Below are positions 1 through 7,005 of a stretch of DNA of 64,000 nucleotides, piece after piece (within the stretch, counting starts at the first letter, position 1; the number at the start of each line of letters is the position of its first letter). The position numbers and the translations under genes were made by a program. The stretch is taken from assembly GCF_055900595.2 (NCBI RefSeq), contig NZ_CM148325.1; one strand, given 5' to 3'. The notes beneath the pieces were generated by a model. The model was not told the DNA's origin, did no database searches, and saw only the letters and a program-made list of their open reading frames with translations.

Positions 1-94
1 GTACTGATTACGCTGTCTGCGATAACCTGCCGTCCCTGCCGCGTTTTCCCGTTCTGCCCTGTCCACTGGCTGACCTGCATGTTACCTGCCACGC

Positions 95-307
95 TTACCA
101 GTTCGCCTTTCTGGTGTCTGGCCAGTGCTTCGGCCTGTCTGCCAAACGCCAGCACAGATAACCACATTGTCGCCTGTCCGTCATCGAATATGTTTTATCG
201 CCACTTTCCGGAATATCAATTAACTTAATTAATAACGCGTCCATTTCCTTTGCGCAGATTAATGCATTTTCAGAGTGGATTAATACTTCAAAAGGGATTT
301 TATTCAT
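95..307 (-). CDS. hypothetical small protein (70 aa), function unknown
   Basis: ORF with GGGGTGAG Shine-Dalgarno about 7 nt upstream of ATG; no family recognised; followed by another ORF running off the left window edge. Confidence 0.3.
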   Translation of the reverse strand: MNKIPFEVLIHSENALICAKEMDALLIKLIDIPESGDKTYSMTDRRQCGYLCWRLADRPKHWPDTRKANW

Positions 308-347
308 GGCTCACCCCTCACGAATACGCTGTTTCTTATACATAAAT

Positions 348-929
348 CCCCACCCGGGGTGAAATCATACACCTCGTGATTGATTCCAACGGGCTAAAAG
401 TCTTTGGGGAAGGCGAAAGGAAAGCCAAAAAGCACGGCAAAGAGGGGCGTCGCATCTGTCTGTTGATGGCAACACACATGAAATTGTCTGTGCAGACCTG
501 TCGCTGAACAACGTCACGGACTCAGAAGCCTTCCCGGGGCTTCTCCAACAGACTCACAGAAAAATCATGGCTGCAGCGGTAGACGGGGCTTACGCCCCCC
601 GACTCTGTCACGATGAACTGAGGCGTAAGAAAATCAGCGCGCTTACCCCTTCCCGAAAAGGTGCGGGTTACTAGCCCGGTGAATACGAAGACCGTAACCG
701 TGCAGTGGCTAATCAGCGGCTGACCGGAAGTAATGCCCGGTGTAAATGGACAACAGATTATAACCGTCGTTCGATAGCGGAAACAGCGATGTACCGGGTA
801 AAACAGTTGTTCGGAGGTTCACTGACGCTGCGTGACTACGATGGTCAGGTTGCAGAGGGTATGGTCATGGCGCTAGCGCTGAATAAAATCACGAAAGTAG
901 GTATGCCTGAGAGCGTGCGTATTGCCTGA
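348..929 (+). mobile_element. IS4/IS5-superfamily DDE transposase remnant, N-terminally truncated and frameshifted
   Basis: Open frame from ~348 (no start codon) reads ...IHLVIDSNGLKV...AAAVDGAYAP...; stops at TAG ~690, then continues in another frame (705..929) with YNRRSIAETAMYRVK, matching the Y-2-R-3-E-6-K transposase signature. Confidence 0.55.
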
Positions 930-1226
930 AAGCACAACTAGCTACGGGGCTCTTACCCTAAATCAGATTTTTTCAACAAAGCCCAACTGGTATTAGAAAA
1001 CCTGTTGAATATTTAATACAACCATGTTAAATAAAAGAAATAAAGAACTGTTATATCTATTTTCTTAATGGTGAATCATTCAGCAATACCGAATAAAGTA
1101 GAATAGTTTTTAGAAATGCATCACATTTTCTTGTGTATACCCATATAGGAGATGTACATCCATAAAAGATAGAATAATAAAGTTAAATTGCCATGACGAT
1201 AATCACTTTCGAATAGGAGTAAATTA

Positions 1227-1616
1227 ATGAAGAAACAAAAATTCTTTATTGTGAGTTCTATACTTGTAATGTGTTTATCTACCAGTCATATATCTTTGGC
1301 TTCCGGACTGGATAAAAATATGCAGAGCCTTGCAAGAAATATGAGCACTCTACAATCCTCTGGTGATAAAAAATCTCTATTAAATGCTCTTGATATGATG
1401 GACAAAGCTGTAAATGCTTCCATGAATACTCTTCCTGAAAAAATAAACAGCAACGATAAAGTCGCAGTGGAAAGTTATAAGAATGAGTTGAAGAAACTAC
1501 AAAATGAAATCAATCTTGCAAAAGAGAAGGTTGAGTCGGGGAATATAGAGTCACTACGTGATGCTCTGGATAAAATGAATAATATAAAACTGGAAGGCCA
1601 CCGAAAATTCAGATAA
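1227..1616 (+). CDS. cytochrome b562 family protein (CybC-like), secreted
   Basis: 129 aa with N-terminal signal peptide; mature part aligns by eye with cytochrome b562 (LDKNMQSL versus LEDNMETL; C-terminal EGHRKFR versus AYHQKYR); Met and His heme-ligand positions conserved; AT-rich. Confidence 0.6.
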   Translation: MKKQKFFIVSSILVMCLSTSHISLASGLDKNMQSLARNMSTLQSSGDKKSLLNALDMMDKAVNASMNTLPEKINSNDKVAVESYKNELKKLQNEINLAKEKVESGNIESLRDALDKMNNIKLEGHRKFR

Positions 1617-1650
1617 ATAATATTCTATAGAAAAATTTAATTTTATTTCT

Positions 1651-1688
1651 AAATACGGCAAAGTATTTTACTGTAATTTGCCGTATTT
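1651..1688. terminator. perfect 12-bp inverted repeat hairpin downstream of the b562-like gene
   Basis: AAATACGGCAAA-14 nt-TTTGCCGTATTT read directly; no clean T-run. Confidence 0.4.
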
Positions 1689-5080: not shown

Positions 5081-5153
5081 GGAACTCATTTTCTGTCCGA
5101 ATTCTGTTCATCGGTTTTCCGGTAACGGGGGATTTATTACATTTTACCGGGAG

Positions 5154-5583
5154 ATGGTCAATACATTTAAATGCCGGAAACAGCAGACCTGCTTTCAGCC
5201 GGAGCGCACGGGGGCGATACTTTATCTTTTCCACCCTGCTGCAGGTGATTATCTTCAGCACCGGATACGGTGGAATAAATGGAATACGAGATTCACTGTT
5301 ATTCAGCTCCCTGTGGCGGATACCCGTGTTTCTTTTTCCAGAACGGATAAAAATTATTGCAGCGGTTGTCGGTATTATTCTCTGGACTACGTCACTGACA
5401 GCACTCTGTTATTATTTTATTTATAGTCATGAGTTCTCGCAGAGTGTTCTTTTCGCTATGTTTGAAACGAATGCCAGCGAGGCAGGAGAGTATTTCAGCC
5501 TTAAACTGTTGTTTATCACACGGGTATATACCGCAGTTTGCATTTTCCTGTGGACACGCCTGAAGGCAAAAATCAAAAAATAA
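5154..5583 (+). pseudogene. EptC/CptA-like phosphoethanolamine transferase, N-terminal fragment only, frameshifted near 5225 and truncated
   Basis: Translation ...STLLQVIIFSTGYGGINGIRDSLLFSSLWRIPVFLFPERIKIIAAV...FAMFETNASEAGEY...WTRL closely matches my recollection of the E. coli EptC N-terminus; ends at TAA 5581..5583, far short of a ~570-aa enzyme. Confidence 0.6.
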
Positions 5584-5591
5584 CAGTTAAG

Positions 5592-5620
5592 CCCCCACCA
5601 ACCGCTGCAGTTGGTGGGGG
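5592..5620. terminator. GC-rich hairpin between the truncated eptC-like fragment and the integrase 3' end
   Basis: CCCCCACCAA-9 nt-TTGGTGGGGG read directly; T-rich run follows on the minus strand after ~8 nt. Confidence 0.4.
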
Positions 5621-5630
5621 ATGGTTTATT

Positions 5631-6818
5631 TCATTTGTGCGTTTTTCCCATAAGAGAATCAATGTAATCAGCGTACCACTGCATCATTTTACGGCGACCA
5701 TCGAGATAATGTGCATGATTATAGGTACCCCTGATGGAGTTTTTATCCACATGAGCTAACTGCATTTCAATCCAGGCAGAATTAAAGCCCTGTTCGTGCA
5801 GAATGGTACTCATGGTGTGACGAAAACCATGACCGGTTGCCCTGCCATCGTAACCGATACGTTTGAGCACCATATTGATGCAGCCTTCACTCATAGGTTT
5901 GTTTACATCGCAACGTCCGGGTAGCATAAGGCGATACTGTCCGGTAAAACCATGTAATTCCTGCAGAACAGAAATGACCTGGCGTGACAGAGGAACAATA
6001 TGAGGCCGGCGCATTTTCATTCTCTCTCTAGGGATATGCCAGAGTGCGTTGCTAGAATCAATTTCTGACCATTCGGCCAGTCGCAATTCAATCGTTCTGA
6101 GCCCGGTCAGAATCAGCAGGTTTGTAGCCATACGAGTGACAGGACTGCCGTGATAGTCAGCGAGCTTCCGGAGAAAAACAGGAAGTTCATCCGCTCTCAG
6201 ATGGGGAAAATGTGCGGTTTTTGGTGCCGCCAGCGTGCTGCTCAGTTCTGAGGCTGGATTGACAGTGGCTCGTCCTGTGGCTATGGCATAACGGAAAATC
6301 TGATTGCAGTATTGCCGGACCTTGCGTAGTTTTTCCAGAGAGCCTCGTTTTTCAATTCGACGTAGTATTTCCAGCATTTCCAGTGGAAGGATATCAGTAA
6401 CGCTCCGGTTGCTCAGATACGGGAAAACGTCTTTATCCAGAGCTTCCAGTACGCTTCTGGCGTAACTGTCAGACCATGATAAAGATTTATGATGATGCCA
6501 TTCGATTGCGAGAGCATGGAAGGTGTTGGTGACAGAGATTTTCTGTGAGAGTTTTTCCCTTCGTTTCTTTTCACCGGGATCACCGCCCTCGGAGATAATT
6601 TTCCTTGCATCGTCGCGTTTGGTTCTGGCTTCTGCAAGGGAGACGTCAGGATAGACACCGAAGGACAGTTTTTTCTCCTTTCCTGCTATCCTGTACTTAA
6701 AGCGCCAGTAGCGTGCTCCCGTGGTTTTTACCAGCAGATATAAACCACGTTCATCAGAGAGTTTATAATCTTTGTCTTTAGGTTTGGCTGTTTCGACTTG
6801 TCTGGCTGTAAGTGCCAT
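5631..6818 (-). CDS. P4-family tyrosine integrase (site-specific recombinase)
   Basis: 395 aa from ATG at 6816..6818 with AGGAG 7 nt upstream; P4-type N-terminus (AKPKDKDYKLSDERGLYLLV); catalytic motifs HGFRHT and RGTYNHAHY near the C-terminus. Confidence 0.85.
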   Translation of the reverse strand: MALTARQVETAKPKDKDYKLSDERGLYLLVKTTGARYWRFKYRIAGKEKKLSFGVYPDVSLAEARTKRDDARKIISEGGDPGEKKRREKLSQKISVTNTFHALAIEWHHHKSLSWSDSYARSVLEALDKDVFPYLSNRSVTDILPLEMLEILRRIEKRGSLEKLRKVRQYCNQIFRYAIATGRATVNPASELSSTLAAPKTAHFPHLRADELPVFLRKLADYHGSPVTRMATNLLILTGLRTIELRLAEWSEIDSSNALWHIPRERMKMRRPHIVPLSRQVISVLQELHGFTGQYRLMLPGRCDVNKPMSEGCINMVLKRIGYDGRATGHGFRHTMSTILHEQGFNSAWIEMQLAHVDKNSIRGTYNHAHYLDGRRKMMQWYADYIDSLMGKTHK

Positions 6819-7005
6819 ATGGGGGCTCCTGAAACTGACTGAACACAATGGGCCCCCAAATATGCCCCCATTTTATGCTTGATTTAGGGGGTGAACAGTA
6901 GAATTCAGTGGAGCTCATAATGTTCGGGTTGACTGTAATATGGTGATTGTGCATGAGTTTTACGGAGTTTGGGAGGCAGAGGTAGAAGTGAAGGTAGTAC
7001 CCTCC

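Follow-up and report, generated by a model that had tools for sequence, protein, structure and literature searches.

The window, a 64,000-nt stretch of Escherichia coli DNA (contig NZ_CM148325.1), is divided by a junction at the 3' end of ynjA. To the right of 7006 the gene order is that of K-12, as comparison with K-12 and with clone-mates of the window strain bears out, whereas window 1–7001 consists of foreign DNA with a G+C content of 0.30–0.45, as against ~0.50–0.57 in the core, and probably represents one end of a large pathogenicity island. The island gene nearest to ynjA is an intact open reading frame for a P4-family tyrosine integrase, the one clearly intact mobility gene of the tract, whose start codon lies 183 nt from a 7-bp core, TAAGGAG, that contains the ynjA stop codon. 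ARAGORN detected neither a tRNA nor a transfer-messenger RNA (tmRNA) in the whole window, and an Rfam scan of 1–12000 at E ≤ 1 returned no match; likewise, no tRNA or tmRNA is present at locus L018. A preliminary description of this DNA had reported a P4-family integrase abutting ynjA without a tRNA, and in this it was right. The breakpoint it proposed, at 7005/7006, does fall inside the 7-bp core (7002–7008), but island-specific sequence already ends at 7001. The direct repeat of 6819–7005 that it anticipated at the far end of the island proved to be restricted to 7 bp, the segment 6819–7005 being the island's own attachment-site arm.

In K-12 and in the empty sites, ynjB begins 9 nt after the ynjA stop codon. 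An isogenic empty site is provided by eight island-free complete genomes (including E400634 and AST85) that are ~100% identical to window 7006–64000, and K-12 has exactly the same empty site as these eight clone-mates. Read in the ynjA-to-ynjB direction, attB, the empty site, is CGTTCT-TAAGGAG-AGATGATG (longer form CGTTCT-TAAGGAG-AGATGATGCGCC), attL, as present in the window, is CGTTCT-TAAGGAG-GGTACTAC (longer form CGTTCT-TAAGGAG-GGTACTACCTTC), and attR, as present in ECCNB12-2, TUM9803 and Ch1, is TTATTCC-TAAGGAG-AGATGATG (longer form TTTTATTCC-TAAGGAG-AGATGATGCGCC). The 7-bp TAAGGAG, on the minus strand of the window, is the only sequence common to all three junctions, and the direct repeat flanking the island consists of this core only. 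It comprises the ynjA stop codon TAA (7006–7008) and, where ynjB follows it (attB and attR), also the GGAG that serves ynjB as ribosome-binding site, so that both genes survive integration; the ydjX–ynjD gene string is split. The target is thus not the tRNA or tmRNA 3' end typical of the P4 family, but a stop codon and a ribosome-binding site. Judging from the three junctions, strand exchange must lie inside this 7-bp stretch, a length that matches the overlap region of tyrosine recombinases, although its exact position there is inferred, and the recombination core would essentially be the ribosome-binding site of ynjB. On the island side of attL (7001–7008) the core runs on as TAAGGAGG, a perfect Shine-Dalgarno sequence, with no start codon at a suitable distance after it. 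In strain SCU-115 (L004) a private T-to-A change, 4 nt upstream of the ynjB ATG, lies in the spacer between the ribosome-binding site and the start codon (AGAAGATG instead of AGATGATG); it is not found in three other island-bearing strains or in the empty sites.

Combining attL and attR, attP would read ATTCC-TAAGGAG-GGTACTAC, with TTATTCC-TAAGGAG-GGTACTACC and ...TAGTTTTATTCC-TAAGGAG-GGTACTACCTTCAC... as longer spellings. The flanks of attB share just TTC and one G with the core sites of attP, and a TAAGGAG 7-mer is met with every ~20 kb, which means that the integrase or the arms, or the two together, must supply further recognition. When arm-type repeats were sought by k-mers, the only motif returned was a weak GGGGC/GCCCC-rich one common to both arms.

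The arms and the integrase point to a tRNA-Phe origin. Integrases related to that of the window at 67–89% amino acid identity lie 176–177 nt downstream of tRNA-Phe in seven of the seven loci examined, two of them E. coli pheU and the other five with relatives from Lelliottia, Enterobacter, Providencia and a metagenome, which identifies tRNA-Phe as the ancestral target. The window integrase belongs to this clade by its sequence and by the homology of its attachment-site arms, but not by its position, since it adjoins the ynjA core rather than a tRNA-Phe gene. The P' arm, located between the core and the integrase start codon, aligns without gaps over 183 columns with the spacer between tRNA-Phe and the integrase at pheU (75.4% identity), where it starts with GGTACTAC opposite GGCACCAC of the tRNA-Phe 3' end. 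On the other side, the last ~130 nt at the ynjB end of the island, the P arm, are 76–84% identical to the distal ends of pheV islands, and this homology reaches ...TTTATTCC / ...GTTTTATTCC. Together the two arms fix a single register, in which ATTCC-TAAGGAG-GGTACTAC stands opposite the tRNA-Phe-type ATTCC-GAGTCCG-GGCACCAC. The central 20-mer in this register is identical at 13 of 20 positions (P about 2e-4), and the matches are distributed unevenly: the left core site ATTCC is conserved throughout (5/5) and the right core site largely so (6/8, the two differences being C-to-T transitions), whereas the 7-bp crossover segment matches at only 2/7. The change is thus confined to the overlap, with the core-binding sites retained, in an attP that is itself reconstructed, and the element appears to keep a vestige of the tRNA-Phe 3' end in which only the strand-exchange segment has been replaced, by the sequence present at ynjA/ynjB.

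The integrase displays the three-domain architecture of the P4 family, with an N-terminal arm-binding domain (Arm-DNA-bind_3, DUF4102; PF13356, E=1e-27), a SAM-like central domain (Phage_int_M, PF22022, E=3e-28) and a catalytic domain (Phage_integrase, PF00589, E=6e-22), and also matches NCBIfam PRK09692. The catalytic residues R241, K268, H330, R333, H356 and Y366 occupy invariant columns in the alignment of relatives, such that the protein, full length and catalytically intact as judged from its residues, is presumably active today. Its closest relatives are pheU-type integrases within E. coli (88–89% amino acid identity), followed at 67–80% by integrases from Lelliottia, Enterobacter, Providencia, Edwardsiella, Serratia and Salmonella. 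The similarity to the E. coli pheU-type integrase is, however, distributed as a mosaic: nucleotide identity is 88% over codons 1–245 (dS 0.53) and 96.9% over codons 314–389 (dS 0.09), but drops to 67.6% over codons 246–313 (dS about 1.6). This cassette, which spans the conserved Lys268 hairpin region, contains 22 of the 43 amino acid differences (Fisher P=6e-8, for a region picked after seeing the data), including E264R, I284V, F299L, A312G and S313C at positions otherwise invariant in the tRNA-Phe group. A role for the cassette in site specificity is plausible. A312G and S313C may correspond to the specificity residues 282–287 of lambda and HK022. Sequence searches of the Protein Data Bank (PDB) for mapping onto lambda Int residues gave end-point ranges only or no lambda match, a profile alignment with an approximate lambda Int sequence ended at residue 254, and the nearest solved fragments are domains of the CP4-like and CPS-53 integrases. 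With regard to a donor, a protein word search gave short fragments only, and no blastn match in E. coli exceeded ~71% identity across the whole cassette. On E. coli plasmids, a truncated relative of the integrase, covering about half of the gene at ~84% identity, occurs at 173 places.

The same island is inserted at the same nucleotide in 29 of 5,426 complete E. coli genomes (0.5%). In 5,388 genomes ynjA and ynjB adjoin each other without interruption, and the only genomes with a split junction are these 29, all of which carry the integrase and the arm at 100.0% nucleotide identity, with the next-best integrase reaching at most 85.5%; because the split junctions coincide with the carriers, no other element uses the site. 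Among 15 copies (the window and 14 others), the 4,901 nt of the island adjoining the core differ by 0–3 single-nucleotide polymorphisms (SNPs), whereas on the chromosomal side of the core 1,250 nt resolve into 11 haplotypes separated by 6–68 SNPs, corresponding to up to 5.4%. The first informative flank SNPs are located 88–132 bp to the right of the core and 45–104 bp to the left, and it is at the core that identity gives way to divergence. The flank of the window is identical to that of the island-free clone-mates right up to the core, and the island was found neither in the eight clone-mates nor in K-12. Either the window clone would have gained the island, or all eight clone-mates would have cleanly lost it, and both routes require precise recombination at the ynjA/ynjB site. 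The site therefore appears to be a real, dedicated one. Moreover, a nearly identical island within 11 flank haplotypes argues that a very young element has integrated here site-specifically again and again, which appears far more economical than homologous recombination through the flanks.

In relatives, the island continues for a further 65–90 kb beyond the part seen in the window, up to ynjB, and measures ~71–98 kb by genome coordinates. The copy of SCU-115 (~90 kb) fills the interval between the region of the ynjB start codon and the stop codon of ynjA. It carries iha, iucABCD-iutA, sitABCD, sodC, ibrAB-like genes, a YadA-like adhesin and PhoX, in addition to pseudogenised conjugative-element genes and many insertion sequence (IS) remnants. 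At the ynjB end resides a module of the kind typical of CP4-type and pheV-type islands, encoding a YeeP-like GTPase, a DUF932 protein, an antirestriction protein, a JAB/RadC-like protein, CbtA/CbeA and a DUF4942 protein. Beyond it, ynjB–ynjF are intact in all relatives with a visible far end; these genes have been displaced by the island, not replaced. The preliminary description, which had the tract standing where K-12 has ynjB–ynjF, is refined in this respect, and its expectation that the island runs past the left edge of the window is borne out. It had also left the choice between a horizontally acquired island and the scar of one. The island is the reading that stands, whereas a scar does not agree with an intact, identical integrase and with many recently entered backgrounds. 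Indeed, the element combines sporadic distribution, atypical composition, an integrase at its end, direct repeats and virulence cargo, as genomic and pathogenicity islands do. Fresh IS insertions or deletions distinguish individual copies at window ~930–1000, ~4200 and ~1887: several strains carry ISEc12 behind the IS5 remnant, in B771 the GT4 pseudogene is interrupted by IS3, and L26 has a deletion on the left side. The island is thus undergoing remodelling while the integrase/attachment-site end stays identical. In strain GF60 (NZ_CP172185.1), the attR end and the integrase end are ~733 kb apart in the same relative orientation, which suggests a large inversion with one endpoint within the island.

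Taken together, we consider it likely that window 1–7001 forms the attL end of a large pathogenicity island, riddled with IS elements and of tRNA-Phe descent, that was inserted by its own integrase at TAAGGAG between ynjA and ynjB. The island is real and recently mobile, and probably represents a natural retargeting of a tRNA-Phe-specific integrase. In lambda, strand exchange by Int requires identical overlaps in attP and attB. Excision from secondary sites gives rise to the site-affinity (saf) mutants of the phage, in which overlap-only changes direct integration towards sites whose overlap matches. A comparable route can be envisaged here. A pheU/pheV-type island would have integrated once, as a rare event, at ynjA/ynjB, and excision would then have carried off the TAAGGAG overlap in attP, after which the element would have preferred the ynjA/ynjB site. 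The resulting attP would derive without gaps from the 3' end of tRNA-Phe, with the flanking integrase core sites kept and the overlap exchanged; given the requirement for identical overlaps, such a replacement would redirect integration from tRNA-Phe to ynjA/ynjB. The replaced 68-codon cassette of the catalytic domain may in turn fit the enzyme to the sequences that flank the core at the new site. We give about an even chance to the full scenario, namely that a saf-like gain of a 7-bp overlap together with a foreign cassette created an exclusive site within an operon, and that the ~90-kb aerobactin/sit/iha island is now mobile and spreading among poultry-associated and human lineages. Support for an altered site preference is indirect and comes from the 11 flank haplotypes at one nucleotide position. 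For movement from cell to cell, mobilisation in trans, as demonstrated for PAI II536 (PMC3202238), offers a precedent.

Several observations weigh against this interpretation. The far end of the window strain's own island falls outside the window, and the island is heavily decayed: its conjugative-element genes are pseudogenised, its transfer machinery is not intact, and an excisionase family is matched only weakly (NCBIfam, E=4e-4, below the cut-off). A 307-nt synthetic attP found half-matches only, and no circular junction, in the complete E. coli genomes, and the attP 23-mer had no match in JGI metagenome contigs or IMG/VR; as no attP junction was seen, excision is only presumed and attP is known only through attL and attR. 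Codons 246–313 are also the most variable segment of the family, such that their divergence may not relate to specificity. Finally, homologous recombination with crossovers inside the ~45–130 bp beside the junctions is compatible with the sequence. On this last point and on the empty attP search and the lack of intact transfer genes rests an alternative in which an ordinary pheU/pheV island entered a secondary or illegitimate site at ynjA/ynjB on a single occasion and then spread between lineages only by homologous recombination of its flanks, through conjugation or transduction, with no real attB and with an integrase that is irrelevant today. For every such transfer both crossovers would have to land within ~100 bp although many kilobases of homology are available, and this would have to be reconciled with 11 flank haplotypes around an island that differs by so few SNPs over 4.9 kb, and with a window flank that matches the island-free clone-mates right up to the core. 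Moreover, the overlaps of attL and attR are identical, both arms differ from tRNA-Phe-type sites as a changed attP predicts, and the integrase is intact and identical in 29 of 29 copies. We therefore regard a single insertion followed by such spread as unlikely.

A short direct repeat at both ends and the many IS elements and remnants inside the island could also be read as traces of an IS-mediated or composite transposon insertion, with TAAGGAG as a 7-bp target-site duplication. This we consider very improbable, as both ends are homologous, in register, to the attachment-site arms of pheU/pheV islands and do not form an inverted repeat (GGAATAAAACTA and GGTACTACCTTC when read inward), the end genes are the integrase and the DUF4942 gene rather than a transposase, and one nucleotide position has been used across 11 haplotypes. 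That the tract is ancestral chromosome lost by most E. coli, or an assembly artefact, is more improbable still: nothing speaks for it except that the window alone does not show the far end, and it is contradicted by an island in 0.5% of complete genomes with near-zero diversity amid highly diverse flanks, by exact, identical empty sites in K-12 and clone-mates, and by an identical junction in 29 complete genomes, reproduced in independent assemblies. The low prevalence and the reproduced junction likewise speak against the two outcomes that the preliminary description had named as fatal to its reading, ordinary core genome and an assembly artefact.

With integration at ynjA/ynjB by the island's own integrase as the favoured reading, the remaining content of the window tract can be described as mostly decayed cargo (Table 1), for which gene identities were taken from the RefSeq annotation of 99.6–100% identical copies and from NCBIfam scans. 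The decayed glycan-modification module, cytochrome b562-like gene and IS remnant listed in the preliminary description were all recovered at the positions it gave, as were its AT-rich stretches, with G+C falling to 0.30–0.34 at 1001–2000 and to 0.37–0.40 at 2400–3400.

Table 1. Features of the island end and its junction with ynjA, in window coordinates
Feature	Position	Strand	Basis and remarks
Island end with integrase	1..7001		99.6–100% identical in 14 other sequences; runs past the left window edge
IS5-family transposase remnant	349..929	+	RefSeq: frameshift, internal stop, N-terminus missing
Cytochrome b562-like gene, intact, 129 aa	1227..1616	+	NCBIfam PRK15058, E=1.2e-19, below curated cut-off; RefSeq
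YebF-family C-terminal fragment, 57 aa	2114..2287	-	NCBIfam YebF, profile positions 64–111 of 114
Polysaccharide deacetylase pseudogene (PgaB/IcaB-like)	3315..4135	+	RefSeq: frameshift, internal stop; NCBIfam PgaB and IcaB matches
GT4 glycosyltransferase pseudogene	4135..5080	+	RefSeq: frameshift, internal stop; split ORFs; GT4 family matches
CptA-type phosphoethanolamine transferase, N-terminal fragment (~130 codons)	5161..5565	+	NCBIfam CptA, E=1.5e-45, profile positions 12–131 of 556; RefSeq: partial
P4-family tyrosine integrase, intact, 395 aa	5631..6818	-	Pfam domains; RefSeq WP_001218736.1 in relatives
Divergent cassette of the integrase, codons 246–313	5880..6083	-	67.6% nucleotide identity to the E. 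coli pheU integrase; spans Lys268
P' arm of the attachment site, between core and integrase start codon	6819..7001	-	Gapless alignment to the pheU spacer
attL core/overlap, TAAGGAG	7002..7008	-	Sole sequence common to attB, attL and attR
ynjA, chromosomal; stop codon inside the core	7006..7554	-	ORF list; comparison with K-12 and clone-mates

The intact cytochrome b562-like gene encodes a signal peptide and sits amid pseudogenes in DNA of 30–34% G+C. Against NCBIfam CybC it scores 70.9 bits, compared with a cut-off of 130 bits, and from its sequence it appears to be a divergent paralogue that has been kept in all island copies. The decayed cargo next to the integrase has an intact counterpart elsewhere in E. 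coli, in strain LH50-c, which comprises a YebF-like protein, a polysaccharide deacetylase, a GT4 glycosyltransferase, CptA, an extra LpxM and a tetratricopeptide repeat (TPR) protein; the corresponding segments are window 2070–5565, positions 7045–14124 of the LH50-c locus (L024) and positions 683–3542 of locus L007. In one pheU island, a phosphoethanolamine transferase and a TPR protein likewise adjoin the integrase. This gene set may resemble the shf-capU-msbB2 type of surface-modification locus. A G+C-rich hairpin at 5591–5622 (CCCCCACCAAC...GTTGGTGGGGG), flanked on both sides by A/T runs, separates the CptA fragment from the 3' end of the integrase gene and looks like a bidirectional terminator, as predicted from its sequence.

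On the chromosomal side, the haplotype of the window lineage at 7006–19000 (ydjX-ynjA-ast) is only 93–97% identical to other E. coli, and ynjB–ynjD of a clone-mate (L006) are ~92% identical to other E. coli, in contrast to window 39001–64000, which is at least 99% identical to many strains. The divergent ydjX-ynjA-ast haplotype may be an imported or an ancient allele block. The type III effector gene espL1 is annotated beside yniD in the same clone-mate, and the identical sequence lies at ~37860–39800 of the window.

Among known systems, the closest are the pheU/pheV islands that E. coli and Shigella carry, such as the pheV islands in ST131 and uropathogenic E. coli. These encode integrases with 88–89% amino acid identity to that of the window, located ~180 nt from the target and transcribed away from it, and have homologous attachment-site arms on both sides, a distal set of YeeP-like GTPase, DUF932, antirestriction protein, CbtA/CbeA and DUF4942, and similar types of cargo (iha, aerobactin, sit). 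They differ in that their target is tRNA-Phe rather than the ynjA/ynjB junction and in that their flanking repeat is ~19 bp of the tRNA 3' end rather than 7 bp; in the island described here, the 7-bp crossover segment is replaced and integrase codons 246–313 are divergent. The three domains, including Arm-DNA-bind_3 (DUF4102), are shared with the integrases of satellite phage P4 and of CP4-type cryptic prophages, which in contrast occupy tRNA or tmRNA 3' ends rather than a position between two protein-coding genes. A parallel to the overlap change is found in the lambda saf mutants, reportedly described with secondary attachment sites by Weisberg, Enquist, Foeller and Landy in 1983, in which a change restricted to the attP overlap shifts the preference to a chromosomal site with a matching overlap. 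Those, however, were laboratory phage mutants, whereas here a natural island of 70–100 kb would have followed a similar path together with a changed integrase segment.

Protein-gene targets for integrases are already well known, and the kind itself is not new. Islands with dusA-specific integrases (PMC4482086) and the protein-gene islands in the Islander and TIGER catalogues (PMC4383910, PMC7192596) likewise pair a clade of tyrosine integrases with a dedicated target that is conserved, is not a tRNA gene and keeps its gene function after insertion. Those clades are broad, old and defined by their target, whereas the element described here is a single, very young offshoot within a tRNA-Phe-specific clade. 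Neither ynjA nor ynjB is named as a site of island insertion in the searchable literature, and the same holds for a large review of islands in E. coli and for the accessible portion of the supplementary text of PMC7192596.

What is unusual in the present case is the resolution. While the acquisition of new targets by integrases has mostly been deduced from deep phylogenies, here the parental and the derived states are both available, in a very young derivative with a still recognisable parental attP. They are set apart by an exchanged 7-bp overlap, a pair of transitions within one core site and a single integrase cassette, and the comparison places strand exchange of this integrase clade at the tRNA-Phe positions GAGTCCG. 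The ynjA/ynjB junction is an unrecognised insertion site, and island finders based on tRNA genes will miss islands of this type, among them an island with iron-uptake and adhesin genes that appears to move between poultry and human E. coli.

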